Shown: positions 4,620-28,291, numbered from the stretch's first letter. The stretch: DNA of 64,000 nucleotides from Candidatus Hodarchaeota archaeon (GCA_048886685.1 JBHLKM010000001.1:1-64000), one strand, 5' to 3'. Program-made: numbers and translations. The notes: generated from the letters alone by a model not told the origin.

Positions 4620-4729
4620 TGGCGCGGCTAGCGGGATTTGAACCCGCGTCGCAGGAGTGACAGTCCCGAATGCTTTCGGTTAAGGAAACAGAATTGTTAT
4701 ACTTAAAGACCGGGCTACACTATAGCCGC
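4620..4729 (-). tRNA. tRNA-Asp(GUC) with a 32-nt D-loop intron (4675-4706, position 20b/21); CCA encoded
   Basis: Spliced sequence GCGGCTA TA GTGT AGCCCGGTCT^A GCAT T CGGGA CTGTCAC TCCTG CGAC GCGGG TTCAAAT CCCGC TAGCCGC G CCA. BHB: CGGT/ACCG helix with CT^T and AA^A bulges and a TAAG/CTTA intron stem. Confidence 0.93.
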
Positions 4730-4882
4730 TAAAAATTTTAGATATATAAGCAAAGGAATAAATGAAAATATAAAAATTTTATTCTGAATAGCGTGTTAAT
4801 AGATTGAATACAAAGATTTATATTGTTTACAAATAATTTAGATACTAAGGAATAGGTATAACAATATAATATATTTATCATT

Positions 4883-5329
4883 TTGCCACAATTGTATATA
4901 CTTGATTCAAAGGGTTTTAGATCGGTTGTTCTCAATTTAGAAAACAATACTGAGGAATTTATTACAACATTAGAGAGGATTATAAGATTAGGGGTTAGTA
5001 TCATTAAGAATACTGATGAACTCAGGGAAGAAATTATAGATTACGATGATATCTATCAAATTTCGATAATGGATATAAATTATCATTTTTGGTTTAAAGT
5101 GTCTAATGGTACAATATTATATAAAAAAGGAATTAATAGAGGGGCTACATTTAGAGTCAAGTATAAAAAAGATATATTTATTAAAATTCTTAAACGTGAA
5201 ATGCAAGGAACGGATGCGTACATGAAGGGTAAAATCCAAGCTGATGGAGATCTGACTCAGGGGTTAAGATTTATAAAGTTATTTAGGATGTTTGTAAAAT
5301 ATATTAATAATGGGATTAAAAAGGTTTAA
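4883..5329 (+). CDS. SCP2 domain protein (true start probably downstream of 4883)
   Basis: GTDAYMKGKIQADGDL is an SCP2-type motif. Confidence 0.75.
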   Translation: MPQLYILDSKGFRSVVLNLENNTEEFITTLERIIRLGVSIIKNTDELREEIIDYDDIYQISIMDINYHFWFKVSNGTILYKKGINRGATFRVKYKKDIFIKILKREMQGTDAYMKGKIQADGDLTQGLRFIKLFRMFVKYINNGIKKV

Positions 5330-5428
5330 TGCCCTACTTTTTCTTTCGAGAATTTATGTTTTACTTATAGCAAACATTTTTTTGAAATCGTGAATGAAAA
5401 TATCATAAGCTAGTAATTTTATTTTTAA

Positions 5429-5503
5429 GGGCTTGTAATCTAGTCTGGATAGGGTGCCCGGCTTCGGACTGGGATGTCGCAGGTTCGAATCCTGCCAGGC
5501 CCG
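5429..5503 (+). tRNA. tRNA-Arg(UCG), no intron
   Basis: GGGCTTG/CAGGCCC acceptor stem, CCCGG-CTTCGGA-CTGGG anticodon arm, GCAGG-TTCGAAT-CCTGC T-arm. Confidence 0.92.
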
Positions 5504-5523
5504 ATTTTCTATGAATAAATTCT

Positions 5524-8500
5524 TTAATATAACCTAATAGTGAAAGTGGAGCCTTTATTTCTTCCTTCAGACTTTACAAGTATTTGGCCTCCATGTAATT
5601 CTACAATTTCTTTTGAAATATATAACCCCAGACCTGAACCCTCTATATCTACACCTAGATCCATACCGTATCTTTCCATTTTTCCAAATTTTTCAAATAA
5701 AAGCCCTTTTTCCTTTTCTGTTATTCCAATTCCTTTATCTCTTATCTGTATATCAATGAAATCATGATTATCACTAATGTTGATATAAATTATTCCACCT
5801 TGCGGTGTGTTTTTAATAGCATTTGACAATAGATTGGTGATAACTTGTTGAAGACGAATTTTATCTACATTAAGTTCCAACTTTTCCGGAAGATTTAACT
5901 TCACGTTAAGTTTACGACTATTCAATAAGTAGCTCATTTCTTCAACACATTCTTTAGTAATTATAACGAGATCATTCGTTTTAATGTTTAATTCTAATTT
6001 ACCTGATTCGATCCTTGAAGCATCTATTAAGTTTTCAACTAATTTTTTTAGTCTTAAAGCACCCCTGTGAAAAATCTCAATAAATTTTAACACTTCATCA
6101 TCAATTTCTCCTTCGAAATGCTTTAAAAGAATTTGGGAAGCACCATATATGGAAGTTAATGGTGTTTTCAACTCATGTGAGACTCTAGTAATGATATCTT
6201 TTCTCATTTTGTTAAGATCTACTAGTTTACGATTTTCTTCTAGCACAATTCTTTCGGCTTCTTTTTTTTCGGTAATGTCTAAAGTAGCTATTAAATCCGC
6301 AGCTTTACCCTCAAAAGTAATTTTTTTAGAAATAATCTCTAGCCAGATAACCTCCCCTGTTTTTTTAAGAGCCCTAAACTGTAAATCAGCTAATATTTCA
6401 TTTTTACCATAATAGTCCCTTTCAGATATCTCTATAATCCTATTTCTATCTTCCGGATGTATAAGTCTAAAAAATTCTTTAGGTTCCCATTTTAGGATCT
6501 CTTTAAGAGTAAAACCTAAGGTATCGGCAAATTGTTGGTTAACATACTTGAATTTAAAATTGTCTATAATCGCAATGCCTATAAATGACTGTTCTGTAAT
6601 ATTTCTAAACTTTTCTTCAGACTCAGAAATTTTTAACGTGGCTAGTCTTTGTTTTGTAATATCATTACCAACTGACAAGATTCCTATTAAATTTCCTTGA
6701 TCATCTTTTATTGCTTTATTCGTCCACGATATCCATACTTTTCTTCCATATTTTGTAATATTTTCATTTACATTATTCTTGTATCTTTCAGGATCTTTAC
6801 AAATATCTTCCATCAATTTTATTAAATCACGACCAGTAGTTTCCATTTTTGGAACTATGGTTCCTATAACATGTTTACCAACAAGTCCAGATTTAGAATA
6901 TCCAAAAAAAGTTTCTCCAAATTCGTTAATAAAATTGACTTTTCCTTCAGTATCCCATCTTAGAATAATACTATTAGCATTATTTACCAATTCTCGATAA
7001 TTCTCTTCAGATTCTCGTAATTTTTCTTCTATATATTTCCGTTCAGTAATGTCTATTTGCGAAACCAAAGCAGCGGGTTTTCCGTTATATTTTATTGTTT
7101 TTGAATAAAGGTCTACCCATTTAATTCTTCCATCTTTCATTTTTTTTCGATAAGAATAATGTGGAATAACTCCATTTGTTTCTCCTTTCTGTTTTTTTTG
7201 TGATTGACTCAATAAAAATGGTATATCTTCGGAATGTAGTGTCTTGGAAAGTTCATTGAGTTCCCAATTAAGCATCTCTTGTATTGAATATTCATTTAGG
7301 TCAGCAAGAGCTTGGTTTGCATAGACAATTTTATTGCCCTGAATAATAGAGATAGCCAATAAATTCTGTTCTGTAAGTAATCGAAACCTTGCCTCGCTTT
7401 CCCGTAAATCATCTTCAGCTTTTTTCATTTCTGTAATATTTTCAACAATTACTTGTATGAATTTTATCTCTTTTAACGTAATTAATGAAGTGTGTAATAA
7501 AACCCAGATTGAACTCCTATCCTTCCTAAATAGTTGGATTCTTTTTGGTTCAGGAATCTCTCCTCTAATCAATCTTTTAAAACCGTTTAATACCAGAGGT
7601 AAAGATTCTTTGGAGACCAGATTGAGTAATCTAAAATTTTTTCCCGTTAATTCTTCTTTTTTAAAACCCAATAATTGCTCCACGTATGAATTACATTCAA
7701 GAAATTCTCCTTCAAAGGTCATTAAGGCTATTGCGAAAGGTGAATCTTCAAATAAATGTCGATATTTTTGTTCAGATTCTTTTATCTTTTTTTCTGCCAG
7801 TTTTCTAAATGTAATCTCTCTAGAGACTAATAAAAATTTTTTTTCATTTTTTTCATTGTAAAATCTCCGAATATTAATATTTAACCATATCCACTTTCCA
7901 TCTTTATTTTTCACTCTCAATTCCACCGTTCTATCATCTATTTCATCTTTCGCCCAAAAAGATGATATAAAATTTTCAAAATCTTTTGGATGACCAAATT
8001 TAAGTGCTGATTTTCCAATTAAATCATCATTGGTATATCCTAGAACTCTTAAGTAAGTTTGTTCATTAATATATTCATATTTATAATTCTTATTTAGTAT
8101 GCAGATTAGGTCATTTGTATTTTCAGTAATAAGTCTATATTTTTCTTCAGATTCTAATAATTTTTTTTGTTGTGTTATATCATCAAATACTGTCATAAAC
8201 TCTCCTTTTTCTGGAGAGATTACAGTAACCTTGAAATATGTGTCTAATGGTTGAAAATAGGCTTCAAATGAACATGATTTTTGCGTTTCTGCCACTTTTG
8301 AATATATATCCAAATATGGAGCTTCTTTAACTTTATATGATTCGGTTGCAGTCTTATTTACTACATCCTCTTTTTTAATTGATAAAATTACTTCATATTG
8401 TGGATTTACATCTGTTATTATATAATTTTTGGGTTTTCCCTTGGAATCATAAATAATTTTATGATAAGCGATTCCACTAGTAGAATTGTTAAATAAAGCA

Positions 8501-8601
8501 TAATATTTTTTCTCAAATTTCTTAGATTTTTGGTTCGACTCTTTATTATTGTTTGAAGATGTCTTTTTAATACGTTTAATTTCAGTCAGGGATTTCTCCA
8601 T
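5524..8601 (-). CDS. Multi-PAS sensor histidine kinase
   Basis: About six PAS/PAC repeats (SEEKYR...DITE), H-box SHELKTPL, N-box NLLSNAIK, G-boxes DKGIG and GSGLGL. Confidence 0.95.
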   Translation of the reverse strand: MEKSLTEIKRIKKTSSNNNKESNQKSKKFEKKYYALFNNSTSGIAYHKIIYDSKGKPKNYIITDVNPQYEVILSIKKEDVVNKTATESYKVKEAPYLDIYSKVAETQKSCSFEAYFQPLDTYFKVTVISPEKGEFMTVFDDITQQKKLLESEEKYRLITENTNDLICILNKNYKYEYINEQTYLRVLGYTNDDLIGKSALKFGHPKDFENFISSFWAKDEIDDRTVELRVKNKDGKWIWLNINIRRFYNEKNEKKFLLVSREITFRKLAEKKIKESEQKYRHLFEDSPFAIALMTFEGEFLECNSYVEQLLGFKKEELTGKNFRLLNLVSKESLPLVLNGFKRLIRGEIPEPKRIQLFRKDRSSIWVLLHTSLITLKEIKFIQVIVENITEMKKAEDDLRESEARFRLLTEQNLLAISIIQGNKIVYANQALADLNEYSIQEMLNWELNELSKTLHSEDIPFLLSQSQKKQKGETNGVIPHYSYRKKMKDGRIKWVDLYSKTIKYNGKPAALVSQIDITERKYIEEKLRESEENYRELVNNANSIILRWDTEGKVNFINEFGETFFGYSKSGLVGKHVIGTIVPKMETTGRDLIKLMEDICKDPERYKNNVNENITKYGRKVWISWTNKAIKDDQGNLIGILSVGNDITKQRLATLKISESEEKFRNITEQSFIGIAIIDNFKFKYVNQQFADTLGFTLKEILKWEPKEFFRLIHPEDRNRIIEISERDYYGKNEILADLQFRALKKTGEVIWLEIISKKITFEGKAADLIATLDITEKKEAERIVLEENRKLVDLNKMRKDIITRVSHELKTPLTSIYGASQILLKHFEGEIDDEVLKFIEIFHRGALRLKKLVENLIDASRIESGKLELNIKTNDLVIITKECVEEMSYLLNSRKLNVKLNLPEKLELNVDKIRLQQVITNLLSNAIKNTPQGGIIYINISDNHDFIDIQIRDKGIGITEKEKGLLFEKFGKMERYGMDLGVDIEGSGLGLYISKEIVELHGGQILVKSEGRNKGSTFTIRLY

Positions 8602-8924
8602 TGTAAAAACCGTTCATTTTTTTTGGATTTTAATATCAATACTATCGTTAAATTATTGGATTAAAAAATTAATTTTTTTTCATAAAATTAATTTTATGTG
8701 TATTTTGTTGATGTATACATAATAATTGAAAATATAAGTAAAAATAGTGTCACTTTTTTGCATTTTTACATAAAATTAAAAACTTAGTTAATATAAATTT
8801 TTTTCTTTTTCAAATTTTAGACTAAATGGGATTAAAATGAATTTCATGTATTATATTAAAAAATAGAGTATAACATGAATCTTAAAGTTGTGAAACAGTA
8901 CTAAAAAATGTAGAAATATAGAAA

Positions 8925-9074
8925 TTATCGGAATAGCTTAATTGTAAATTTAGTTTCTTTATCCCTACCTTCAGATTCAAAAAGAATTTCACCATTATGT
9001 AATTCAATAATTTCCTTTTAAATGAAAAGACCAAGAACAGCTCCTATAATATCTACGCCCATATCCATTCCATG
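8925..9074 (-). pseudogene. Relic of a histidine-kinase HATPase C-terminus
   Basis: Translates as HGMDMGVDIIGAVLGLFI*KEIIELHNGEILFESEGRDKETKFTIKLFR*, which aligns with the C-terminus of the adjacent kinase. In-frame TAA at 9018-9020. Confidence 0.8.
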
Positions 9075-9378
9075 GGAAATAAGAAACATTTCATATTTAA
9101 TTCAATGATATGTCGATTAATAGTATTTATTATAGGAGGTTTATTTTTTGGCAAATCTTTAAGTTAGGCTTTAAAGTTCGATGAGATATCTTTATTAATT
9201 TAAAAATTATAATAAAGTTATTTTTGTTTCCATAATCGCGTAATTATGTGTAAAAAAAAGAATTTATATATAAATTCAATTATTAATTATAAAATTGTAT
9301 CTTCATTAACTGAATATACAATAATTTTGCAAAAAAGTAAATATAATTTTGAATAACAAAATAAGGAGCTGAGGATAA

Positions 9379-9696
9379 ATGCCAACTTTGGAAATTAACG
9401 AATTAATAGTTTGTATAATTATATCTATTCCAGTAGCTTTTTCTCCTTACCTTTTACAGAAGAGGAGAGATATTATGAAATGGGCACCAGGATATTATGC
9501 TCTTTTTATAACTTTTCTCTCTACCAATTTAGAAGCATTTTATGCTCCTGATACTTTTAATTATATGGAGCACTTCTTCGCTATGGTTGCGGGAATTTTA
9601 TTTTGTTTAGCTGCTTTTTATGAATACTACACCAAAGTGTTGAAAGGAAAGCAAATTAAAATAAGAAATAGACAAGGAGGGATGGTGAAAAAATAA
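9379..9696 (+). CDS. Small 3-TM membrane protein
   Basis: Upstream AGGAG/GAGG SD-like motif; hydrophobic; its stop abuts the ATG of the next gene. Confidence 0.75.
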   Translation: MPTLEINELIVCIIISIPVAFSPYLLQKRRDIMKWAPGYYALFITFLSTNLEAFYAPDTFNYMEHFFAMVAGILFCLAAFYEYYTKVLKGKQIKIRNRQGGMVKK

Positions 9697-10527
9697 ATGC
9701 TTGGTCAAATTGATCCTTTAGATTTTCGAGATGGAGGTTTTAATTTAGTTGGAATGATTTTCTTTTGGATTGGTGCGTTGGTAGCAATGTTTATCTATTA
9801 TAAAAGGAGAACTCCAACTAATGCAATTTATGTATTTTCCCTATTTGGGGGTGCTTTATACACTCTAGGAAATCTTCTCGATAAATGGATGCTGTGGGAT
9901 AGTGATTTTGCTGATGCTTTTGCTGAAAGTTTTGGTCTTTTTATAGGAGTGTCTGCGCTTTTTTTTGCTGTTATTCCCTTTCTTGAACAAAGACTTGAAA
10001 GAACAAATAATGATATGAAAGCGGTAATTGGTGCCGCTTCAAATACAAGCATTAATGTGGCAAATATTGCGAATGAATTAGCTGCAAGTGCTAGTGAAGT
10101 GAATGCTGCATCAGAAGAAATCGCAACATCAACACAAAATATGACGCTTGAAACTCAAGAAGTCATGAGAGCAACTAATGATATACGCAATGTAATGGGG
10201 ATTATAACCAATATCTCTGATCAAACAAATTTATTAGCTTTAAATGCAAGTATAGAAGCAGGAAGAGCGGGTGAACAAGGTAGGGGTTTTGCTGTTGTTG
10301 CAGATGAGGTTAGGAAATTAGCTGAAGAATCAAAATCGGCTGTCCGCGAAACAAACGAGAAAATTAATAACGTTATTAATAAGATTAACAATTCTTTCAG
10401 TTCTATGGAAGGAATAAGCGCATCGGCAGAACAACAAACAGCATCAATGGAAGAAGTAACATCGACTGCTCATAAATTAGGTACTTTGGCTGAAGATTTA
10501 AAGAATTCTTTAAGAACTGACAAGTAA
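9697..10527 (+). CDS. Methyl-accepting chemotaxis-like protein (3 TM plus short signalling domain)
   Basis: [37 protein letters not shown] is the MCP signalling hairpin signature. Confidence 0.92.
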
Positions 10528-10741
10528 ACACTAATTTACGAGCTAATTTCTATTTTTTTATTGTAATTCTATTTTCTTTTTATTTCTTGAGCTTATCTTT
10601 TTATAGAAAATCTCTTTTTTTTTAAGATTTAATTTTTAGTGTAAAAAAGTATTTATATATGTAAAATAGTATAAATATGTATAAAAAGAACAATCATTCA
10701 TTCAATAATTTATATGTAATCCTATACTAAAGGTGTAAACT

Positions 10742-11476
10742 ATTACTGATTATATCCAGGATAAGGAAAGGATTTCCTTATATGTATCAAAAGAAATTAA
10801 AGAAGAATGGCAAGCATTTGCTAAAAATAATGATTTTACAACTCTATCGAAATTGATTAGAGAAGCTTTAAAATTCTTTATTCAATGCAAAGGATTGGAT
10901 CTTTCTAATCTTTCTCATGATTTGAAAGAACCCTTAACCTCAATCAAGGGATATTTACAATTAATTATTGAAACATATGGAGATTCAATAGAAAGTAATG
11001 TTTTATCCACATTGAAAAGTGTACTTAACCAATGTTTAATTTTAGAGAATAAAATTGTAGAATATTTAGATAAATTTGAAATAGAAGAAGAGGGTATAGA
11101 TCAAAAAATTGAATATGATATACTCCTAGTGGAAGATGATCAGGAGACTGTTAATTTGTTGGTAAGTTACTTCGAATCGATGGGAGTTTCATGTAAGGGA
11201 GTTTTAAGCGGTTTTAAAGGCCTAAAAGAGTTAAAAAGATATATACCAAAACTGATTTTACTTGACATCATTTTACCAGATATTAATGGATATGAGATAT
11301 TAAAAAGAATCAGAGCAGATGAAAAATTAAAAAAAATTCCCGTGTTTTTTCTCACAGCTATACCAAGTGTAGAAGTAGAGAAAAAATCATTAGATCTAGG
11401 AGTAACAGGTTCGATTTTAAAACCTTTTAATTTAACTGATTTTGATGTGATTTATAAGTATTTGGAAAAAAAATAG
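10742..11476 (+). CDS. RHH-like DNA-binding + HisKA + receiver fusion regulator (extended to an ATT start; ORF track starts at 10853)
   Basis: In-frame extension ITDYIQDKERISLYVSKEIKEEWQAFAKNNDFTTLSKLIREAL looks like a ribbon-helix-helix. Followed by SHDLKEPLTSIKGY and a REC domain (ILLVEDD, LILLDIILPDINGY, KPF). AGGTG lies 6 nt before the ATT, and there is an in-frame TAA at 10736. Confidence 0.8.
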   Translation: MTDYIQDKERISLYVSKEIKEEWQAFAKNNDFTTLSKLIREALKFFIQCKGLDLSNLSHDLKEPLTSIKGYLQLIIETYGDSIESNVLSTLKSVLNQCLILENKIVEYLDKFEIEEEGIDQKIEYDILLVEDDQETVNLLVSYFESMGVSCKGVLSGFKGLKELKRYIPKLILLDIILPDINGYEILKRIRADEKLKKIPVFFLTAIPSVEVEKKSLDLGVTGSILKPFNLTDFDVIYKYLEKK

Positions 11477-11766
11477 CAGCACAACTATATTCTTTATTAT
11501 TTTTTTACGAGTTTTTATTATCTTAACGAGTAAGGGAATTATTTTTTGCTTATTAGTAGTCTATTTTTTCTCGCTTTAAAAAAAAAGGAGAGACTTCAAA
11601 TATATTAATTTTGGTTAATCTTTTAACAACGCTTTTGATTTGAAAGATGAAAATATTATTTGTGGTAAAAAAGTATAATTATTATCAAAAAAAGATTTAA
11701 ATACTAATAAGGTGATTACTTTATTAGTACAAAAATGTAATTTAGCACAAAAATAACTTAATTCAA

Positions 11767-12228
11767 ATGATAAATTTAGATAATAACCAAGATTTAGATT
11801 GGGAAACGATGGTTCCAAAAGCAAAAGGATTGATTGGTTTTCTAGTTCTAGATAAAACAGGTTTATTATATTTTTCAAAAGTTAAAAAAAATAGAATAAA
11901 TTTAGCAGAAAATATTTTTCAAATAGCGGGATTTATTTCAGCTTTATTGATTTATTCACAAGATCTTATTGGTGAACAAAACGCAGGGTTAAAGCATAAA
12001 GATATAAATCTTGGTGATTATCATATGTTCTTTAAAACTAGAGACAACATAATTTTTGCATATATAGTTGAAAAATATGAGTGTACCGAAAATATTGAAG
12101 AATGTATGAAGGTTGTTATAGAGAAGTTCTTAAACACATATTATTATTCTCATCTGGTAGAGTTTAAGGGTGATTTGAGTCCATTCAATAATTTTGAAAT
12201 TATAATTGATCGATATTTTGAGATGTAA
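11767..12228 (+). CDS. Longin/roadblock-like fold protein
   Basis: FLVLDKTGLLYFS...IAGFISAL...F pattern resembles Asgard longin-like domains (pattern recognition only). Confidence 0.55.
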   Translation: MINLDNNQDLDWETMVPKAKGLIGFLVLDKTGLLYFSKVKKNRINLAENIFQIAGFISALLIYSQDLIGEQNAGLKHKDINLGDYHMFFKTRDNIIFAYIVEKYECTENIEECMKVVIEKFLNTYYYSHLVEFKGDLSPFNNFEIIIDRYFEM

Positions 12229-12300
12229 AAAATCAGAAATTTTGAAAAAAAATGTCTTTTAAATCATTCAACTTTAATTAAATATAAATATTGTGAGATT

Positions 12301-12726
12301 TTGAATAGTAATAGTAGATTTCACCAAAAATTATATATAAACAAACCAATAATTAATATCACAATGACTGCAACTGCAACTCTTGAAGTTGACTTAGTTC
12401 TAGATAAATTAATAAAAGAATTTGGAGAAAGTGGGCTATATTTCGTACTAATCACGTCTGAAAATGGAGCAATAATTAAATCATATATTAACCAAGAATT
12501 TAATAAAACTTCAATAGGGTTAAATATGTCTCAACTGTATGAATTGGCCGAAGAAATAACTTCGGAAATTGGAGTACATAATCCAGATTTTAATGTTATC
12601 CATTCTGACAATTTTTATATACTTTCAATTAAGATTCTAGGGAAGATAATAATTACCTTGGTGGAAGATCAACTCAATTTCTCTCGGATTTTTGAAATAA
12701 TAAACAGTTGTATAATTACAAACTAA
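12301..12726 (+). CDS. Roadblock/LAMTOR-like protein (start probably the ATG at 12364)
   Basis: YFVLITSENGAIIKS followed by a helix and beta-strands is a roadblock-type pattern. Confidence 0.55.
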   Translation: MNSNSRFHQKLYINKPIINITMTATATLEVDLVLDKLIKEFGESGLYFVLITSENGAIIKSYINQEFNKTSIGLNMSQLYELAEEITSEIGVHNPDFNVIHSDNFYILSIKILGKIIITLVEDQLNFSRIFEIINSCIITN

Positions 12727-12866
12727 TTTTCAAGGATCTTTTATTGTTTCCATCTTATTTTGAAGAGACACATTTGTAAAAGCAGTTTTTTTATAAAATA
12801 AAGCAAATTTTTATAAATCCTCGTACTGAATTACTAAATTAATACAACAATTTAGGAAGAAATGAA

Positions 12867-13349
12867 ATGAAGTATGAAAAAAACCAATACTCAGAATCCT
12901 TCTCAGTATGCACTTTAATTATTGCTGGAGCATTTTTATATTGGGGGATAAGTAGTTTTATCCCTTGGGATAAGTGGTCATGGTGGGGATTTATTTCAAC
13001 TGGAATTGGTATAGCTATTCTTGTTGGACAAATCTTAGCAATAGCTAACAGAAGCAAATTAAGAAACGTAGTGTTGGCTGAATTTCAGGAAAATCCGGAA
13101 GTAACAGTGGAATTAGTTAGTAAAAATACAGGAATTAGCAGAAAAGATATTCAAGCGATAATTCTAGATCTAAAGGCTTCGGGTCAATTAAAAGCAAAAT
13201 TTAATTCCCAAACTGGTCAGGTTAAACATCTTTTAACAGAAGAAAAAGAGCTAACTCCAGGAGAACGACCAAATTTCTGTTCTAATTGTGGTACTCCCAT
13301 TACTAAAGAATCAGCTCAATATTGTGCCTATTGTGGTGGGAAGATTTAA
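12867..13349 (+). CDS. 2-TM protein with a winged-helix/PCI-like domain and a C-terminal zinc ribbon
   Basis: Two TM segments, then IILDLKASGQLKAKFNSQTGQV, then CSNCG...CAYCG. Confidence 0.7.
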   Translation: MKYEKNQYSESFSVCTLIIAGAFLYWGISSFIPWDKWSWWGFISTGIGIAILVGQILAIANRSKLRNVVLAEFQENPEVTVELVSKNTGISRKDIQAIILDLKASGQLKAKFNSQTGQVKHLLTEEKELTPGERPNFCSNCGTPITKESAQYCAYCGGKI

Positions 13350-13420
13350 AAAACTTTTTTTCCATTATTATAAATTCTATTGGTTAAATGTAAAAAATAA
13401 AAAGAATACTATAGTTCATT

Positions 13421-14059: not shown

Positions 14060-14153
14060 CTTAATCAGATCTCCAAAAATTACAGAATAACGAAGAATAG
14101 AATAAAATAATATAAAAAGTTTTGTTTGAAAAATTGATGAAGAGATTGAAGGA

Positions 14154-17980: not shown

Positions 17981-18173
17981 AATGATGTTTTATCTTATTT
18001 TTTGATTAGATCTAGATTATAATCACAATTAAGATAAAGAATAAAGTACAGAATCTCATAAAAATCTTTTTAGTCTTCAAGTTTAAAAATAAGCCCTTAA
18101 GAGCCATAAATTTTCAATTTTCAATTTTCCACAATACCGATAATACTTTTTTATTTAAAAAATATAGAAAAAA

Positions 18174-18416: not shown

Positions 18417-18482
18417 AAATAATAACTTATATATTCGATTTTCCGAAAGAATTTTCATATGAACCTATTGGGCTTCTAAAAA

Positions 18483-18948: not shown

Positions 18949-18965
18949 CATGGGATTGATGAGAG

Positions 18966-19706
18966 CTACGGGCTTAATATTTTTAATTTCATTTCCATTG
19001 GTAATTTTTCACTCCCATATCTAAGAATTAAACGTGGAAGTATACCTCTATTTCTCATCAAGTATTGAAATATTATTTCAGGGTTATACTTTGAACATGT
19101 TTTCAGGAGCCATCCAATTCCCTTTTGAATGTAATCTTCTGGGTAGATAGTCATTTTTTCAACGAATTGAAACACATAATCCTCGTTGAATTCCTTATTT
19201 ATCATGACTAATTTGAGTAAAATTACCAATGATGCACGTCTAACCCATAAATTCTCTGACATCGACCAAGTCGCAATGGTTTCTTTAGCTAATTCTTCAT
19301 TTCCTTTCTTTCCTAAAAACGGTCCAATAACTCTGATCATTGTTGTATCTGTTATTGCCCATGTATCGAAGTTGTTAGGAATTAACTCTTGAATCATTTC
19401 AACTGTTTCTTTATTAAAAGACTTCTTAAATCGATTCAGAAGGAAAATGCCAGCTATTTTTTCGTCATACACATTGGTTTTTATAAGTGTTTTAAATATT
19501 TCAGAAGCTTCTTTGTAGCTCAATTGAAATTTACGATTAAGTTCTCTAATAAACTTTTCAATATCAGAATGTTTATTTCCGTATGCTACAAAATTAGGAT
19601 TGTCGGAATTCAAAATCTTATACATTCGAGATTTTTGCTCGTTGGTCAAATGAGGAGAGTTTTGTTTTAAATACACCCTAATCTCATGAATAACCTTCTC
19701 GATCAT
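18966..19706 (-). CDS. DNA alkylation repair protein (AlkD-like)
   Basis: DTWAITD, WSMSENLWVRRAS and YIQKGIGWLLK. Confidence 0.88.
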   Translation of the reverse strand: MIEKVIHEIRVYLKQNSPHLTNEQKSRMYKILNSDNPNFVAYGNKHSDIEKFIRELNRKFQLSYKEASEIFKTLIKTNVYDEKIAGIFLLNRFKKSFNKETVEMIQELIPNNFDTWAITDTTMIRVIGPFLGKKGNEELAKETIATWSMSENLWVRRASLVILLKLVMINKEFNEDYVFQFVEKMTIYPEDYIQKGIGWLLKTCSKYNPEIIFQYLMRNRGILPRLILRYGSEKLPMEMKLKILSP

Positions 19707-20839
19707 AAGAATTTATCAATTCCAGATTTAAATTTAAGATCTTGACTTTTTTCTAAGTATGGTTTAACATAATCAATAATTTTTTGATTAAAGTTTTTCA
19801 ATTTGGATAAATTTCCCCTTCTATATACGTCTAAAATAGATTCCTCCAAGTTATTAAGGTTTAAACCGGCCCACATCATTGCTTTATTAGATTTTCCTGT
19901 CTTTAATGAATCTATGTATGACTTATTTAACAACAGCTCAGAGATCTTATAATTCCATTTACGATAATCTGAAGGAATCCATCTTTTTATTCTTACTGCT
20001 ATATTATATTTTTTACATAAATTCAATAATTTAAGATGTAATTTTTTTATATATTGGGCAGGTGGATGCATTTCACCTTTATATAATTCAAGCAATGGCT
20101 TGACAACATACTTATACCTACTATTATTTAATATTTTTACGAAATATTCAGCTTGAGAATCACGCATAGTTAAACCAGGTGAAAACAACACAAAATCTGC
20201 TCCAAATTTACTAGATTGCTTGATTATATCTTCCAAGTTTCCATCGTCATCTGCTAAGAATGGAATAATTGGGATCAAATAGGTCCCTACTTGAATATTA
20301 GGGGCTTTCCTTTTTATGATTTGTATGGCTTGCAACCTTTCAGAAGGAGGTGATGAGTAAGGTTCCAAAAATTTAGAAAGTTCCTCGTTGATGGTAGTTA
20401 TTGAAAATCCTATTGTACCCCATGTATCTTCTGCGATTTTTTTTAATATATCAATATCTCGAGTAATTAATTTTGATTTAGTAGCAATATTAATCGGGAA
20501 TTTATGTTTCGCTATTACTTGTAGAACTTTTCTTGTATGTTCAATCTCCTGTTCAATTGGTTGGTAAGCGTCATTTACTCCTCCTGGAGCAATTACATCT
20601 GGCAATAAAGTTCGCGCTCTTTTTAACCTCAGATCTAATTTTTTATCAAAATTGGTCTTAATAATGACTTCATTTTCAAAATTTTCTAAATAATATCGCT
20701 GACTTCGAGCATCGCAATAAATGCAAGCATGAGCACATCCTGAATATGTGTTCAAAGTATACCTTGACCAAAACCATGAATCAGGATATTTTAATTTATT
20801 TATGACAGATTTGAATTCTTTATATCTATATATAACCAT
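19703..20839 (-). CDS. Radical SAM protein, spore photoproduct lyase-like family
   Basis: LNTYSGCAHACIYCDAR, DAYQPIE and TKSKLITRDID. Confidence 0.85.
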   Translation of the reverse strand: MVIYRYKEFKSVINKLKYPDSWFWSRYTLNTYSGCAHACIYCDARSQRYYLENFENEVIIKTNFDKKLDLRLKRARTLLPDVIAPGGVNDAYQPIEQEIEHTRKVLQVIAKHKFPINIATKSKLITRDIDILKKIAEDTWGTIGFSITTINEELSKFLEPYSSPPSERLQAIQIIKRKAPNIQVGTYLIPIIPFLADDDGNLEDIIKQSSKFGADFVLFSPGLTMRDSQAEYFVKILNNSRYKYVVKPLLELYKGEMHPPAQYIKKLHLKLLNLCKKYNIAVRIKRWIPSDYRKWNYKISELLLNKSYIDSLKTGKSNKAMMWAGLNLNNLEESILDVYRRGNLSKLKNFNQKIIDYVKPYLEKSQDLKFKSGIDKFL

Positions 20840-21204
20840 AATCTTGCCTAATTATTCTGTGTCCTCATAATAAAATTAAAAATTTAAGATTATTGAAACA
20901 AAAATATAATAGATTTAATTTTAATAGAGGGAAAAAACGCCAGTTAAATAAAAAAGTGATCTAATATGGAAATGGAAAAAAAATTTAGCTGACGTTTTTT
21001 CAAATATAACATACAACTTTGTGAATTTATTTTTTTGCCTTTTTTTTTATTAAAAGGTTTATAAATTTCTTATAAAAATAGGGAGGGAATTTAAAATTTT
21101 AGAAGTAAGGAATATTTCCACTTGGAGTGATAATTGAAAATTTTGAATCGTGAAAAATAGAACTTTGCATTAAAAATTTAGTTGAAAAATTTGAGTTTAA
21201 GACA

Positions 21205-21297
21205 TGCGCCGCCCGGGAATCGAACCCGGGTCACTGGCTGTCTTCAATCAGTTCTGACTATGGAAGGCCAGAATCCTAACCCCTAGACTAGCGGCGC
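21205..21297 (-). tRNA. tRNA-Gly(UCC) with a canonical 21-nt 37/38 intron (21240-21260)
   Basis: GCGCCGC acceptor stem; CTGGC CTTCCA^[TAGTCAGAACTGATTGAAGAC]^A GCCAG; BHB with a CTTC/GAAG central helix. Confidence 0.95.
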
Positions 21298-21340
21298 TTA
21301 TTATTATAAAAAAATACCATTTCTTATAACTTTAGTGATT

Positions 21341-22015
21341 TTATTGAATATTATGACTTAACTCATAGTACGTAATGATTTTATTAGTAATTACCCATGC
21401 ATCTAAAGAATATTCTGAAATAGAAATTAATTTATTAGTTAGTTTTAAAACTTCTTCTGAAAAGGTATTCTTCTGGAATCCACCAATAATAGCGATTATA
21501 TTTCTAGATAAAGCTTCTGGAAACAAATCTTTGTAGTTATTAACTAATTTTCCTCTACTTGAAAGTAAAATAGTTTCTGGATTTTTGAATTTATCAATTA
21601 AATCAGGTAATTTTCCTTCATACTGAGAGATTAAGTTCTTACCATTTACTTTAATATTGCCATCAATCAACACTTTTGCCATTAATCCTTTAAACCGATT
21701 ATAATTTCTGGCTATTCTTATTTCTGAATTAAATTCATAAATTCTATTGTTCGTAGTATGAATAAATAAGTTCAGATTTCCAGTTTTGTTTAATGTCGAT
21801 CCTAAAGCATTGAGCAAACATAAATGAGTAATGTCAGGACGACCCCTCTTTTCCGAATTCTTCAAACTTTTAATAGCACTATGATGGAGAGCGTTATCTA
21901 AAATTTGAGAAGAATATATTTGTGAAGACAAATTTTTTTTAATAGCAGAATGATTTCTAATTTCTTTGGGGATTAATTCTATACCACATTCCACTAAAAC
22001 TATAATTAAAGGCAT
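21341..22015 (-). CDS. nep1: 16S rRNA pseudouridine N1-methyltransferase Nep1/Emg1
   Basis: ILDNALHH, RGRPDITHLCLL, RIARNYNRFKGLM and IGGF. Confidence 0.93.
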   Translation of the reverse strand: MPLIIVLVECGIELIPKEIRNHSAIKKNLSSQIYSSQILDNALHHSAIKSLKNSEKRGRPDITHLCLLNALGSTLNKTGNLNLFIHTTNNRIYEFNSEIRIARNYNRFKGLMAKVLIDGNIKVNGKNLISQYEGKLPDLIDKFKNPETILLSSRGKLVNNYKDLFPEALSRNIIAIIGGFQKNTFSEEVLKLTNKLISISEYSLDAWVITNKIITYYELSHNIQ

Positions 22016-22031
22016 ATTTTTCCTTGCTTCA

Positions 22032-22394
22032 TTAATTTAATTCAGAAAATTTTTTTTTAACTCTTAAAGTTTTAATAAAATATCTGGTTGTATTATTACA
22101 TTCAAAACATGTTAAAGAAATATGAGAGCCCTTTCCCTTATGAGAGTGCATTCTAATCCTATAATTTAACCCAGGGTATAAAAATTTTTTACATTTTTTA
22201 CATATACGTTTTTTCCACTCATATGGTAATTTTATTTTTGCTCGCTGAGCATAACGTCGAGCTAGATAAATATATCTATTCGCTAATGATTTATTTTCAG
22301 GAAATATATCATGAGCTCTTTGAAATAAATACAATATCCGACTTTTTGCAATTTTTTTTATTATTACCTTATAATTTCTATTTTTTTTTGCCAT
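22032..22394 (-). CDS. rnp4: RNase P protein component 4 (Rpp21)
   Basis: IAKSRILYLF, LANRYIYLAR, KRICKKC and TCFEC. Confidence 0.93.
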   Translation of the reverse strand: MAKKNRNYKVIIKKIAKSRILYLFQRAHDIFPENKSLANRYIYLARRYAQRAKIKLPYEWKKRICKKCKKFLYPGLNYRIRMHSHKGKGSHISLTCFECNNTTRYFIKTLRVKKKFSELN

Positions 22395-22425
22395 ATAAAT
22401 GCTTTCAAATAAAATTTTATTTAAG

Positions 22426-22713
22426 TTATTTAAGAGGTTCTAATGAGAGAATGAAAATTTTACCTCTGACGTCTAATAAATAAGAATTTGTCTGCTTTGA
22501 AATTTCAAGAGCAATGTCTTCAATATTTGATTTGGATGCGATTGTTTTTAATGCCTTTATTTTAATAATCTTATATCTTTTTAATAATCCAGTGACATGT
22601 AGTATAAACTCTTTAGTTATTCCACGCTTCCCTAAGGTACAATGTGGTTGCGATAGTAGCGCTTTTTTAAATTCTTTTTGGTAGTCCATCGTCCCAGAAC
22701 TCAAAAAATACAA
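22426..22713 (-). CDS. YhbY/CRM RNA-binding protein
   Basis: LGKRGIT, IIKIKALK and DVRGKIFIL. Confidence 0.85.
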   Translation of the reverse strand: MYFLSSGTMDYQKEFKKALLSQPHCTLGKRGITKEFILHVTGLLKRYKIIKIKALKTIASKSNIEDIALEISKQTNSYLLDVRGKIFILSLEPLK

Positions 22714-22783
22714 AAATTTTTAATCTATTCTAGCTTTAAAAACGTATTATATAAAATAAAGAAATATCAAATTAAAGATTAAC

Positions 22784-23209
22784 ATGTCTATATATGTCGT
22801 TCAACCAGAAAAACTGATCCAAGTTATTGCGGAAAAGTTAAAAGAATTTCCCGAAATTTCACCACCAAAAGGTTCAGAATTTTGGAAGACAGCGTTTTTC
22901 AAAGAATTAGCTCCTATGGATTCTGAAAATTTCTGGTATATCCGGTGCGCTTCCTTACTCAGAAAAGTGAAGAAATTTGGGCCTATTGGTGTAAATAAAC
23001 TTCGAAAATTTTACGGTGGAAGAAATAGAAAAGGTAAAGGATTACATCATTCTGCGAGGGGAAGTGGAAAAATAATAAGAGTAGCTCTTCATCAGCTTGA
23101 AAAAGCAAATCTAATAGAAATGAAAGAAAAACAAGGAAGGGTTCTTTCTTCTGAAGGGATAAGTTTTTTAGAACGGACGGCATACGGAATTATGAGAACT
23201 AAAGACTGA
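22784..23209 (+). CDS. rps19e: Ribosomal protein eS19
   Basis: WYIRCASLLRK, YGGR and GSGKIIRVALHQLE. Confidence 0.97.
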   Translation: MSIYVVQPEKLIQVIAEKLKEFPEISPPKGSEFWKTAFFKELAPMDSENFWYIRCASLLRKVKKFGPIGVNKLRKFYGGRNRKGKGLHHSARGSGKIIRVALHQLEKANLIEMKEKQGRVLSSEGISFLERTAYGIMRTKD

Positions 23210-23243
23210 TCATATTAAAAGGTGTAATTTTTAGGGGTTTAAA

Positions 23244-23585
23244 TTGAGCAACGAAGAGGAATTAGAAAATATAAGAAGGAGAAAGTTGGAAGAATTAAGA
23301 CAACAAGCAGCACAACAACAAATAGCAGAAGCTCAACAGCAAGAATTTGAAGAAAAAAAGTATCTAATAATGAGAAAGATCTTAAGTGTTGAAGGAAGAC
23401 AGAGACTTGAAAATATTCGAATTGTCAAACCACAATATGCTGAACAAATAGAATTACAATTGATTCAACTATTCCAAAGTGGTAAATTAAGAGGATCAAC
23501 ACCTCTACCAGATAAAGCATTTAAAAAACTCCTAGAACAGTTATCAACATTCGAAAGGAAGAAAGAGTTTAAAATTAAAAAATAA
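23244..23585 (+). CDS. PDCD5-like DNA-binding protein
   Basis: ELENIRRRKLEEL, GRQRLENIRIVKP; conserved position after rps19e. Confidence 0.92.
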   Translation: MSNEEELENIRRRKLEELRQQAAQQQIAEAQQQEFEEKKYLIMRKILSVEGRQRLENIRIVKPQYAEQIELQLIQLFQSGKLRGSTPLPDKAFKKLLEQLSTFERKKEFKIKK

Positions 23586-23607
23586 TTATAAATAGAAGGA
23601 ATTTAAA

Positions 23608-23769
23608 ATGGCTCGTAATAAAGATTTACCATCGAAATTGCGTAGAGCGAATAGAATGAAACAAAATAAGTCAGTACCTAATTGGGTGATTCAGAGAACC
23701 GCAGGAAAGGTTAGAACTAGCCCTTATTCCAGAAGAACATGGAGGAATACAAGGTTAAAAAGAGATTAA
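23608..23769 (+). CDS. rpl39e: Ribosomal protein eL39
   Basis: Not in the ORF track. MARNKDLPSKLRRANRMKQNKSVPNWVIQRTAGKVRTSPYSRRTWRNTRLKRD. Confidence 0.95.
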   Translation: MARNKDLPSKLRRANRMKQNKSVPNWVIQRTAGKVRTSPYSRRTWRNTRLKRD

Positions 23770-23798
23770 TTGTAATTATTTATCAAAAAAAAATCTGA

Positions 23799-24257
23799 AT
23801 GAAAATGGCTAAAAAAGAAAAAGGAATCAATTTAGACGATTTAGAAGAAGAGTTAATAGACTCGGAAGAAGAAATTGAAGAAGAGATAGAAGAAATTGAA
23901 GAGTTTAGCTTAGATGAAATTACTGAAGAAGAGGAAATAAGTGAAATTTTTGAAGAGGAAGTTGGAGTTATAGAAGAAGTTGAGGAAGAAGAGGTTCCAA
24001 GAGAAGAAATTATTGATGAGAGGATATATATTATCCCTCTTGCGAAAGCAAGAAAAGGACCCAGAAACAAATGGGCTAAAAAGTCAATTCGATATTTAAG
24101 AGATTTTATGACCCGCCATTTTAAACCCGAATCATTGGTCATTTCTCAAGAAGTAAATGAACGAATATGGGAACGTGGAATTCAGAAACCTCCGAGGAAA
24201 TTAAAGGTTAGGGTTACTAAGAATATAGATGGACTCTGTGTTGTCTATTTAGCTTAA
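23799..24257 (+). CDS. rpl31e: Ribosomal protein eL31 with a long acidic N-terminal extension
   Basis: ERIYIIPL and EVNERIWERGIQKPPRKLKVRV. Confidence 0.95.
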   Translation: MKMAKKEKGINLDDLEEELIDSEEEIEEEIEEIEEFSLDEITEEEEISEIFEEEVGVIEEVEEEEVPREEIIDERIYIIPLAKARKGPRNKWAKKSIRYLRDFMTRHFKPESLVISQEVNERIWERGIQKPPRKLKVRVTKNIDGLCVVYLA

Positions 24258-24336
24258 TAGTTTATTTAATTTTAAGGATCGTGTTCATTTTTTATTATAT
24301 ATTATTTAATAATCTATAGATATAGCAAAGCTTCGA

Positions 24337-25017
24337 ATGGCAATTTTAAGATCCCAAATTTTTGGACGTAGTTTAATTGGAGTTTATCTCGCTGCTAATA
24401 ACTCATACGTCCTTTATCCACCAAATCTACTTAATCCATTGCTTAAGAAGTATAGAAGCACTTTTATGGAACCTTTTTATCCTCTCACAATCAATAATTC
24501 CAATCTATTAGGTGTATATATTGCTTCTAATAAATATGGTATAATAGTCCCTCATATTATAAAGGATGATGAGTTAGAAAAATTGAGAGAATTTTTAAAA
24601 AAGGCTACAGATTCTCCCCAAATTTGTGTTTTAAAATCCATAGATAACGCATTTGGAAATTTAATTCTCTGCAATGATAAGGGTGCCATTATTAGTTCAT
24701 TTTTAAAAGATCATAAGGAGATTATTGAAAATACTTTAAATGTTGAGACAATTGTTTATGAATTTGCTGACAATTATCTTCCAGGCTCAATTTCATTAGT
24801 TAATAATAATGGATGTGTTGTACATCCTCTCTCCACTGATGATGAAATCGATTATTTAGCTTCTATTTTAAAAGTTAATGAAGTAGATGTTTCAACAGTT
24901 AACCGTGGTGTACCATATTTAAGTTCAGGAGCAATTGTAAATGATAAGAATGGTATTTTTGGAATAGACTGTACAGGTCCAGAATTGATACGAATTACGA
25001 GTGTTCTACAATTATAA
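24337..25017 (+). CDS. eif6: Translation initiation factor 6 (aIF6)
   Basis: FGNLILCNDKGA, NNNGCVVHP, TVNRG and CTGPEL. Confidence 0.95.
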   Translation: MAILRSQIFGRSLIGVYLAANNSYVLYPPNLLNPLLKKYRSTFMEPFYPLTINNSNLLGVYIASNKYGIIVPHIIKDDELEKLREFLKKATDSPQICVLKSIDNAFGNLILCNDKGAIISSFLKDHKEIIENTLNVETIVYEFADNYLPGSISLVNNNGCVVHPLSTDDEIDYLASILKVNEVDVSTVNRGVPYLSSGAIVNDKNGIFGIDCTGPELIRITSVLQL

Positions 25018-25109
25018 AGAAATTCTTTGTATAAAATAAAAGCAAAATTTATTATTTTCTAAAATATTATCCTTTTTTAAAAGCATTGATTCATCGGATC
25101 TAATTAGCA

Positions 25110-25337
25110 ATGTCAGAGATTAAAATTTATAGAATCATAGGCAATTACAATAAAAATCATAAGAAATATTTATTCCGTAAAGAAGTTCGTGCTTTGAAAG
25201 AAGAAGATGCTCTTGAAAAAGTTTTAAGTCAAATTACTTCTATAGGAATTTACAGACGCCAAATTAATATTCAAGAAGTTAAAGAAATAACTCTAGATGA
25301 ATCACAAGATTATCTTATTAGGGAATTATCAGAATAA
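25110..25337 (+). CDS. rpl18a: Ribosomal protein eL20 (L18a/LX)
   Basis: FRKEVRALKEEDALEKVLS...RRQINIQEVKEI; conserved operon position. Confidence 0.9.
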   Translation: MSEIKIYRIIGNYNKNHKKYLFRKEVRALKEEDALEKVLSQITSIGIYRRQINIQEVKEITLDESQDYLIRELSE

Positions 25338-25365
25338 TTAAAAATTAAAACGGATTTGATAGATT

Positions 25366-25782
25366 TTGGAATCTTCTCAAGATTATCAGGAGCAATTACA
25401 GATATTTAGAATATTGAGGGAACAACGAGAAATGTACCAAGGGCAAATGGAGATACTAAATGTTTCTCGAGCAAATCTTATGAATACAAAGATAACTATT
25501 GAAAATATTAAGGAAGGTGTAAAAGAAAACGATGAAATTTTAATACCTATTGGAGGCATGGCAAACATCAAAGCGTCTATTAATGATCCTGAGAAAGTAT
25601 TACTAGCAGTTACTCATGATCTTATAATTGAAAAAGATTTGGACGGAGCGATTGAACTACTTGAAAAGAGAATTGAACAGCATGATAAAGAAATCCAAAT
25701 CGTAAGAACTCAATTACAAAATATAGATATTAATTTACAAAAAACTACTCAATTAATTCAAAGAGGTTATCGTCAACAATAG
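25366..25782 (+). CDS. pfdA: Prefoldin alpha subunit
   Basis: Coiled coil with EILIPIGG...KVLL...IEKDLDGAIELLEKR. Confidence 0.92.
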   Translation: MESSQDYQEQLQIFRILREQREMYQGQMEILNVSRANLMNTKITIENIKEGVKENDEILIPIGGMANIKASINDPEKVLLAVTHDLIIEKDLDGAIELLEKRIEQHDKEIQIVRTQLQNIDINLQKTTQLIQRGYRQQ

Positions 25783-25844
25783 ACCTCATCGATGTAATTT
25801 TAATTAAATCTTTTTATATAAAGCTAATGCTTGTGAAGATATAA

Positions 25845-26744
25845 ATGCTTGAAAAGCTAAGAAACGTATTTTCTACTTTTGTTAAAAAAACCTTGACAGA
25901 AAAAAAGATAGATGAGGCTATAAATGATTTAAGAATACTCCTTATTAGTAATGATGTTGCTATAGATACCGCTGATGAAATCTGTAAAAGTATAGCTGAT
26001 TCTTTTAAGGGTCAACAAATTGCTCGATTAACATCAACTAAAAAAATACTATTTGACACATTAAAAAAAATTATTATTAAAATCTTAACACCTGAAAAAG
26101 ATATTGATATAATTAAAGAAATTAAGACCAAAAACTCGTTAGGTTTACCATATATAATTGTATTTTTTGGAATAAACGGGACAGGAAAGACTACTACAAT
26201 TGCTAAAGTAGCCAATTTCTTAAAAGAAAGTAACATCAATTCTGTTGCAGCTGCTTCAGATACTTTCCGCGCTGGAGCTATTGAACAATTAACTAAACAT
26301 ATGAACAATGTTGGCATTAGAATTATAAAACATGGATATAAATCTGATCCTGCGTCAGTTGCTTATGATGCAATTGAACATGCTAAAGCTAAAGAAATAA
26401 ACGTAGTTTTAATAGATACTTCTGGAAGGCAGACAACCAACCGAAACTTAATGATGGAAATGCAGAAAATCTGTAGAGTTACAAATCCGGATCTCAAAAT
26501 ATTCATAGGAGACAGCCTTGCGGGAAATGATGTTTTATATCAAGCTAGAGAATTTGACAAGCACGTTGGAATTGATGCTAATATCCTAACTAAGCTTGAT
26601 GCAGATGCAAAAGGTGGCGCAGCATTATCAATTTCGTTTGAAACTAAAAAACCTGTTCTTTTTGTTGGTACTGGGCAGGGCTATAGCGATTTAATACCGT
26701 TTAATAGAGATCTGTTTATTTCAAATATTCTCAACATCGAATAA
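25845..26744 (+). CDS. ftsY: SRP receptor FtsY
   Basis: GINGTGKTTT, DTFRAGAIEQL, DTSGR and TKLDADAKGG. Confidence 0.96.
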   Translation: MLEKLRNVFSTFVKKTLTEKKIDEAINDLRILLISNDVAIDTADEICKSIADSFKGQQIARLTSTKKILFDTLKKIIIKILTPEKDIDIIKEIKTKNSLGLPYIIVFFGINGTGKTTTIAKVANFLKESNINSVAAASDTFRAGAIEQLTKHMNNVGIRIIKHGYKSDPASVAYDAIEHAKAKEINVVLIDTSGRQTTNRNLMMEMQKICRVTNPDLKIFIGDSLAGNDVLYQAREFDKHVGIDANILTKLDADAKGGAALSISFETKKPVLFVGTGQGYSDLIPFNRDLFISNILNIE

Positions 26745-26806
26745 GGATGTAAATGAAAAATGGTTATATTAGATAAATTAAAATAACTTTCTTAATTTAA
26801 TTAGAT

Positions 26807-27049
26807 GTGTCAACTTACCCAAAATATGAAAAGTACTCGAAACTAGATCAGAAAAAGAAACCTGGTCTTTATGAAAGATTAGCAATTTTCTTTCGAAATT
26901 CGAAAAGGATTTTAAAAATAGCTAATAAGCCAAACCGAAAGGATTATTTTCTAGTTTTTAAAATTTGTGGAATAGGCCTTTTACTTTTAGGTGCTTTATC
27001 ATTTGTCATACAACTAATATTCTCAGTAACACTACCTATTGCCGATTAA
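26807..27049 (+). CDS. secE: Protein translocase SecE/Sec61-gamma
   Basis: RILKIANKPNRKDY...KICGIGLLLLG plus one TM segment; follows ftsY. Confidence 0.9.
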   Translation: MSTYPKYEKYSKLDQKKKPGLYERLAIFFRNSKRILKIANKPNRKDYFLVFKICGIGLLLLGALSFVIQLIFSVTLPIAD

Positions 27050-27069
27050 AATCCCACATAAGAGAGATC

Positions 27070-28291
27070 CTAAATATAAAAGATATCGATGTTATTAGGT
27101 ATATTAAGGTCATCTTCCTTATTTTTGCAGGCTATAAATTTGATCTTCATATTTATCGAGAGTGAGAGAAGTCTTTTTGTCAAAATTCCATCAATTATTA
27201 GATATTGAGTATCTTTAAAGTTTCTAATCTTTTCAAAAGTTTCCCCAACCGGAATGTCAAATAATTTCTCAAGACTTTTATTAAATCCAATACTGTGACC
27301 CGTTTGTATAGTATCGAGTGCCTCTAAAATTATTGATTCATCTTTTATCTTTGATTTTTTCAAATATTTTTGAAGTGATACCTCTTTACTAGCATATTTT
27401 TTTTCTCCTGCATTACCCTTTTTAATATCTTTTATTTGCTTTGCTGGTCGTTTGTTTTGTAGTGCTTTGATCATTTGTTTTCTAGTTAATTCTTCAACCT
27501 CATATCCATCTGGAGCTCTAGCAACATAATCTAGCTGTAATACTTGCATCAATTCATTTAAAATAATAGTGCCACCGCGATCTCCGTCAAGAAAACATGT
27601 TACTGTTTTTTTCCCTTTTGCTAAATCCATAACTGATTTAGGTATTTGAGTTCCTTGGACGGCAATTGTATTCTTAATACCAATTCGTAATAAATTTAAC
27701 ACATCAGCTCGTCCTTCTACAATAATGAGATCTGGGTTTTTTTCAACTTCTGGGCCTGCTGGAAGATTATCCTTGCCCCATGTTATAATTTCTCCAAGTT
27801 TGATATCCTTATCTATCTTCTCTTCAATTTCACTTTGTTCTAACGACTTTTCATCCCACTTTTTTAAGAGTTCAGCAGCTCTTTCAATAATTTTCTTACG
27901 TTTAGTTTCGCGAACATCTCGAATTTCAATAAGAGAAATTTTTGCCTCGCATGGACCAACTCGAGATACTGTTTCTACAGTCGCCGCCAATAATGCAGTC
28001 TCCTTTCTTGTCAGAGAGGATGGGATTTTAATGATTCCTTCTGATACTCCCTCTTTAGAAATATTTTCTACTTCAATCCGTCCAATTCGTCCAGATTTTT
28101 GGAGATCCCTTAAATCTAAATCCAAAAGAAGACCTTCAGTTTAGCCGATTTGCCGATACGACCCTAACCTTTTATCTTTGGCCGAAAATGGCGCCGACTA
28201 TATCGCTTTTTTCTACAACACCTTTAATTGAAAATTTTACTTCTATAATATATTTAGTTGTAAACTCATTTTGATTTGTAATCTTGATCAC
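27070..28291 (-). CDS. dnaG: Archaeal DnaG (TOPRIM; exosome-associated), split gene: exon 1 28291-28178, intron 28177-28141, exon 2 28140-27070 (394 aa spliced)
   Basis: Exon 1 MIKITNQNEFTTKYIIEVKFSIKGVVEKSDIVGAIFGQ joins exon 2 TEGLLLDLDLRDLQKSGRIGRI. TOPRIM motifs IIVEGRADV and FLDGDRGG are present. Confidence 0.92.
28141..28177 (-). other. 37-nt BHB-type intron in dnaG pre-mRNA
   Basis: GGCC AA^A GAT...ATC GGCT AA^A: a 4-bp central helix (GGCC/GGCU) flanked by two 3-nt bulges and a GAT/ATC intron stem. Standard cleavage restores the reading frame. Confidence 0.85.

Follow-up and report, generated by a model that had tools for sequence, protein, structure and literature searches.

Short BHB introns predicted in tRNA and protein-coding genes of a Loki-type Asgard archaeon

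The genome bin G000 belongs to a Loki-type Asgard archaeon (Promethearchaeota) and comprises 4.4 Mb at 31% GC with 8.4% contamination; a look for a 16S gene in the assembly gave none. We analysed a 64-kb stretch of this genome (G000:C1:1-64000, hereafter the window) in which an initial annotation had placed six BHB introns within 24 kb. All six are present with the terminal sequences then given, and all lie on the minus strand: one of 32 nt in a tRNA-Asp gene, three of 30, 28 and 28 nt in a tRNA-Phe gene, one of 21 nt in a tRNA-Gly gene and one of 37 nt in dnaG. Their clustering amounts to three tRNA genes plus dnaG and is not unusual, because about two thirds of the tRNA genes of the genome have introns (~26/38 by hand count) and three of the six introns share one gene. 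An intron-free tRNA-Arg(TCG) gene (5429..5503, plus strand) provides a control within the span.

The tRNA-Asp(GTC) gene (4729-4623, minus strand) has a single D-loop intron of the HBh' type (4706-4675, minus strand, 32 nt), whose end ACCG-AA pairs with the exon bases CGGT; the intron is also found in the relative G021, where an A-to-G change leaves the central helix paired. The tRNA-Phe(GAA) gene (17980-17821, minus strand), miscalled as His by ARAGORN, holds three non-canonical introns on that strand: a D-loop intron of 30 nt (17965-17936) whose end GCGA-AA faces exon GCGT with 3/4 central pairs, a D-arm intron of 28 nt (17927-17900) ending in CCCG-AA, and an anticodon-stem intron of 28 nt (17891-17864) ending in GGTG-AA, at a site also occupied in G024 and G002. 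Once spliced, with a 29-nt version of intron 1, the gene is called tRNA-Phe(gaa) by ARAGORN; the length of 30 nt was fixed by reading the sequence and is consistent with the intron-less D-arm of G002. The tRNA-Gly(TCC) gene (21297-21205, minus strand) has one canonical 37/38 intron of the hBHBh' type (21260-21240, minus strand, 21 nt) ending in GAAG-AC, and its predicted mature tRNA is identical to an intron-less orthologue (locus L280). The central helix has 4/4 pairs in every window intron except Phe intron 1, and the mature tRNAs obtained by predicted excision match intron-less orthologues. The five window tRNA introns are ordinary members of the known Asgard/Thermoproteales kind of non-canonical and multiple tRNA introns. 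Elsewhere in G000, ARAGORN missed T-loop introns in tRNA-Lys(CTT) (C16:73584-73684), tRNA-Asn (C33:9864-9970) and tRNA-His (C6:112785-112680), all three with AA ends by eye and left out of the statistics below. A 175-nt tRNA gene (C1:218424-218598, also locus L038:2708-2882) apparently has three introns, which the automatic parse did not separate, and its anticodon reads UAU, that is, tRNA-Ile(UAU). This tRNA is rare in archaea.

The dnaG gene (minus strand) consists of a first exon of ~38 codons with a putative start codon (28178..28291), a 37-nt mRNA intron of the HBh' type (28177-28141; GGCT-AA facing exon GGCC) and a second exon of 356 codons plus stop (27070..28140). The intron separates the Gln codon from the Thr codon in AIFGQ/TEGLL and, if retained, would bring an in-frame TAA after one codon as well as a frameshift; the NF003108 profile matches across it, with positions 1-26 before the insert (28255-28178) and 25-283 after it. 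No second copy of dnaG was found in the genome, so the gene is single-copy. The non-canonical introns had all been described as hairpins of 28-37 nt; the lengths stand, and dnaG departs from the single long hairpin in having a 3-bp closing stem and a small inner hairpin. Its motif is weak: the outer exon helix is absent, the inner stem has 3 bp, there are no two-sided changes and RNAalifold favours other hairpins. An exact scan of metagenome contigs for the joined dnaG junction gave no match, which carries no weight for or against splicing. Divergent from dnaG and near ftsY lies a gene for a Get3/ArsA-family ATPase (28568-29587).

At the identical site, inserts of 37-40 nt interrupt dnaG in 8/30 loci of the genus, and the other 22 are uninterrupted. 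Across the eight carriers the loop is altered while the central helix stays 100% paired, the ends are common, and most have an inner GCC-N5-GGC hairpin. The insert also appears in 11 GTDB records, mostly Promethearchaeota and partly overlapping with the same genomes. On the DnaG tree its distribution requires five changes, of which at least four fall on branches with good support, and it is missing from the sister genome G017. Because the inserts are homologous across carriers, the sequences appear to fit one gain followed by repeated loss, or spread by recombination, better than repeated gain. The Gly codon of this dnaG motif is GGC or GGT in 8/8 carriers vs 2/22 non-carriers, although kin among these are not independent.

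The initial annotation expected further hidden introns in mRNAs throughout the genome. We searched for them by motif-free alignment with free jumps allowed, taking proteins from sampled parts of two relatives (1.6 Mb of G005 and 0.8 Mb of G021) for comparison with the genome, and the reverse; 1,211 + 652 relative genes were aligned to G000, and 1,132 + 635 in the reverse direction. This blind census covered ~1,594 loci and 1.34 Mb, or 30% of the genome. It returned 16 inserts that break the frame, measure 12-70 nt and have good flanks. Thirteen of them are 28-37 nt long and BHB-shaped (eight in G000, four in G005 and one in G021); the remaining three (13, 18 and 50 nt), at gene starts, have no BHB shape and resemble artefacts of the alignment. 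Among the 15 indels in the census that keep the frame and contain no stop, none was both 27-39 nt long and BHB-shaped. The eight blind G000 inserts lie in dnaG (the positive control), a thiolase-like gene (two inserts), pfp, trx, and the genes of a putative LURP-like protein, an HWDREWY-motif protein and an unknown small protein. Candidate-led work contributed another eight: an insert in cdhA by comparison with a paralog, six confirmed against intron-less homologues (in uL11, uvrB and the genes of gamma carbonic anhydrase, a GlcF/HdrD-like protein and acetoacetate-CoA ligase, and a second one in pfp), and one in the RNase HII gene rnhB, an insert whose removal restores DEAGRGP and which recurs in four relatives, the open frame being longer in G002. 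G000 therefore has 16 frame-breaking inserts of 29-37 nt, 10 of them measuring 29-30 nt, in 14 protein genes, two of which carry two introns.

A BHB class, which calls for at least one flanking helix in exon (h) or intron (h'), is assigned to 13 of the 14 mRNA inserts tested; shuffled inserts reach it 3.4 times on average and 9 times at most (2,000 shuffles, sliding allowed). In 13/13 cases the best-scoring boundaries by homology include that of the BHB. The rnhB insert falls short of the strict class in that its first stem pair is open. All 16 have 3-4 central pairs, many only 3/4. A two-sided change of the central helix was read from the alignment of the RNase HII intron in G003, whereas the changes in the Asp and dnaG introns are one-sided. 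A rough scaling of the blind rate, in which introns shared with the reference are missed, suggests ~20-40 mRNA introns genome-wide. Searching by descriptor, with no homologues, lacks both sensitivity and specificity in a genome so rich in AT: 4,907 candidates passed the coding filters, just 4 of the 16 verified inserts were among them, and a stricter subset showed no excess of A at -2. A two-sided-jump search for introns shared with G005 returned mostly operon junctions.

A terminal AA had been proposed as a feature of the non-canonical introns. It ends 12/16 mRNA introns and 17/23 resolved tRNA introns of G000, compared with ~10% AA inside introns, and the enrichment persists when the window introns are excluded (11/15 and 13/18). 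The canonical 37/38 introns (16-25 nt) have it in 2/6 cases vs 15/17 for the non-canonical ones. The two findings that had been named as refuting the initial reading, an absence of further mRNA introns and an absence of AA enrichment, were both looked for; the genome yielded 15 verified mRNA introns besides dnaG together with the enrichment. AA is nevertheless not the constant feature, which is A at -2. Twelve blind mRNA introns from three genomes end in AA (6), AT (5) or AC (1), so that A at -2 occurs in 12/12 vs 8/15 ordinary indels (Fisher p 0.008), while AA itself does not differ significantly from the same control (p 0.26). The terminal rule is thus an A first in the 3' bulge, rather than AA. 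This A is encoded by the intron and free of host constraint, and the bias is for that reason likely due to a preference of the enzyme. In archaeal EndA a cation-pi sandwich grips a flipped base of the bulge, although the same review describes BHB positioning as mainly sequence-independent (PMC10485636); our literature search, outside which most subscription journals lie, found no published account of bulge composition. That each intron supplies one half of the central helix, by contrast, is no special trait, since it defines every BHB intron. A further regularity concerns reading frames: every 30-nt (3n) mRNA intron found contains an in-frame stop. In the blind set this holds for nine of nine, where chance alone would put a stop in ~58% (joint p 0.008). 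The census yielded no counterpart free of stops, a hint that read-through of retained introns is selected against.

The initial annotation held that the lineage gains introns readily and at arbitrary positions, and proposed mapping the gains on a phylogeny. Ready gain is supported by uL11, tRNA-Phe and the thiolase-like gene, even though dnaG fits one gain with losses or transfer. In uL11 there are three unrelated intron sites within ~20 codons; G004 has all three (L141:1354-1504), with introns of 37, 36 and 28 nt within ~150 bases that leave two micro-exons, other members of the genus have one of the three or none, and 0/9 loci from other families have any. In the thiolase-like gene of G000 (L124:988-1068) two introns flank a 16-nt micro-exon, and the introns were absent from all 18 other loci searched, making G000 the only carrier among 19. 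For tRNA-Phe, four genomes show four different intron sets. These comparisons support a rapid turnover of intron positions within the genus. The positions themselves are not arbitrary, because the host exon is constrained and must keep its own half of the helix. The 5' bulge begins with A in 13/14 mRNA cases, many mRNA introns split catalytic motifs, as in cbf5, and the blind sites lean toward conserved stretches (flank identity >=90% at 6/12 vs a background of 24.5%, p 0.05). Tandem duplication was considered as a general origin and rejected: the likeness of exon and intron ends in dnaG comes from the palindromic GGCC, and palindromic helices occur in only 2/16 inserts.

The genome encodes enzymes that could serve both tRNA and mRNA introns. 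Its EndA alpha subunit, best matched by A. pernix 3p1z_B, has the crenarchaeal loop with its lysine and keeps the Tyr-His-Lys triad; a second EndA paralog, which lacks the His, is the probable beta subunit; and RtcB is present. A two-subunit, broad-specificity type of EndA that cuts relaxed motifs has been reported for Asgard archaea (PMC5829648). We consider it highly probable that the six window elements belong to the archaeal BHB introns and that they sample locally what the genome carries throughout, namely ~30-nt introns in tRNAs and mRNAs, and the sequence comparisons indicate that the host very probably splices many mRNAs with its tRNA-splicing enzymes. The sequence shows that in each insert four bases close to the 3' end pair with four of the exon, with a 3-base bulge on either side, and that cuts after the second base of each bulge restore the tRNA or the reading frame. 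In the mechanism we propose, an (alpha-beta)2 EndA with the broad-specificity loop would cut both bulges and RtcB would join the exons; the essential single-copy genes dnaG and uL11 would therefore need splicing. The shared shape (~30 nt, a closing stem, A first in the 3' bulge and usually AA or AT) would stem from selection for cutting by one enzyme and not from common descent of the introns, which were probably gained one at a time at many sites and often lost again. Our best guess at their arrival, a speculative one, is that a small hairpin RNA was ligated into a cut transcript and then copied into DNA. With reasonable rather than high confidence, we extend this picture to Loki-type Asgard archaea: fast-turnover mRNA introns in tens of protein genes per genome, some of these genes having multiple introns and micro-exons, with EndA and RtcB as the machinery, a weak A code, and selection for a stop in retained 3n introns.

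The initial annotation had instead suggested a proliferating system, and the inserts could be copies of a self-spreading element, Introner-like or similar to the transposing introns of Thermoproteales, that moves between tRNA and mRNA genes. The narrow length range, the common ends and the patchy presence would suit such an element, as would the several inserts unique to G000 among its relatives, those in the thiolase-like gene included. An element that copies itself should, however, leave related copies, and the 37 introns share no likeness beyond that of shuffles; the best pairwise score of the loops, 22, lies inside the shuffled maxima of 18-26, in agreement with the earlier reading that the loops are unrelated. 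Nor does the genome contain a convincing donor copy, the insert ends do not as a rule duplicate exon sequence, and an Asgard tRNA census found almost no copying (bioRxiv 10.64898/2026.10.13.758758). We regard a self-spreading element as largely refuted for this genome and, as an account of the inserts, improbable.

Translation offers another way past an insert: the mRNA inserts might stay unspliced and ribosomes hop over them. Ribosome hopping is known from T4 gene 60 and the mitochondrial byps elements. The inserts resemble hopped segments in their similar size, hairpin and early stop codon, and 4/21 allow a match of take-off and landing codons; yet 17/21 have no matching codon pair, four are not removable at any codon boundary, and the untranslated tRNA introns share the same anatomy, so hopping seems very improbable. 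Hardly credible, finally, are pseudogenes or assembly errors, which a draft metagenome bin with 8.4% contamination might invite, even with dnaG, uL11 and trx all on one contig, but which fail because the same sites carry diverged inserts in independent genomes, the exons are intact and highly conserved, there is no second dnaG, and presence in relatives rules such errors out for dnaG, uL11, rnhB, trx, uvrB, pfp and carbonic anhydrase.

Read as BHB introns, the inserts have several known counterparts. HAC1 and XBP1 mRNAs are cut by Ire1, not EndA, at two separate stem-loops of 7 nt, under regulation by stress. They share with the splicing predicted here a protein-catalysed cut of an mRNA, joining by a tRNA ligase and a change of frame (PMC4090602); unlike the junctions here, which fit the BHB, they involve neither BHB nor EndA. 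The evolutionary link to HAC1/XBP1 drawn in the initial annotation thus reduces to the shared ligase step, and nothing here speaks for descent of that splicing from the Asgard introns. In Desulfurococcales and Sulfolobales the cbf5 pre-mRNA holds a close counterpart (Watanabe 2002; Yokobori 2009, PMC2738675), likewise a short frame-breaking intron in a conserved coding motif with a relaxed BHB, an (alpha-beta)2 EndA and a history of gain then losses. The cbf5 intron, however, occupies one site in one gene and is experimentally shown, whereas the present genome has at least 16 introns, spread over 14 genes and predicted from sequence. In Haloferax volcanii HVO_1309, too, a BHB intron in an mRNA is a substrate of the tRNA splicing endonuclease, as is predicted here (PMC7714728; PMC10485636), but it lies in the 5' UTR, has a strict motif and is cut by a homodimeric enzyme. 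The tRNA introns of Asgard archaea and Thermoproteales resemble ours in their D-arm and T-arm sites, in occurring several per gene, in being missed by annotators and in repeated gains (PMC11291895; bioRxiv 10.64898/2026.10.13.758758), and for the Asgard ones also in the absence of copying between genes (bioRxiv 10.64898/2026.10.13.758758). Those two studies differ from ours in dealing with tRNAs only, mainly in other Asgard classes, and the preprint contains neither 'mRNA' nor 'dnaG'. In the searchable papers, which exclude most subscription journals, archaeal introns in coding sequences come down to cbf5, beside which there are predictions and an intron in one leader (PMC2738675, PMC7714728, PMC10485636).

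The surprising part is the genome-wide scale of the mRNA introns, the tRNA part being known (PMC11291895; bioRxiv 10.64898/2026.10.13.758758). Published cases of archaeal mRNA splicing are limited to cbf5 and a single leader in Haloferax (PMC10485636, PMC7714728). With at least 16 introns spread over 14 coding genes of one genome, dnaG, uL11, RNase HII and uvrB included, splicing would be a routine step of expression in this lineage. If so, close relatives of eukaryotes would have evolved intron-rich genes with no spliceosome, and a single splicing activity might link the expression of many genes. Because intron-bearing genes come out of gene callers split or truncated, Asgard proteomes and claims of gene loss should be re-examined. 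The origin of BHB introns becomes directly testable in close relatives that differ by one intron, and the intron junctions are ready substrates for the Asgard enzyme.

Three other interrupted or incomplete reading frames came to light. In a possible small gene (locus L119; G000 C6, near 112121, minus strand), a stretch of 39 nt that includes a stop is a candidate intron. For the pfp gene of G005 (L188) the alignment begins only at reference residue 26, and the start of the gene may be interrupted or diverged. An MvhD-like gene (G000 C6, near 147800) has an in-frame TGA that is conserved with G005; the genome has a tRNA-Sec gene (C1:221077-221164), and this TGA represents use of selenocysteine, not an intron.
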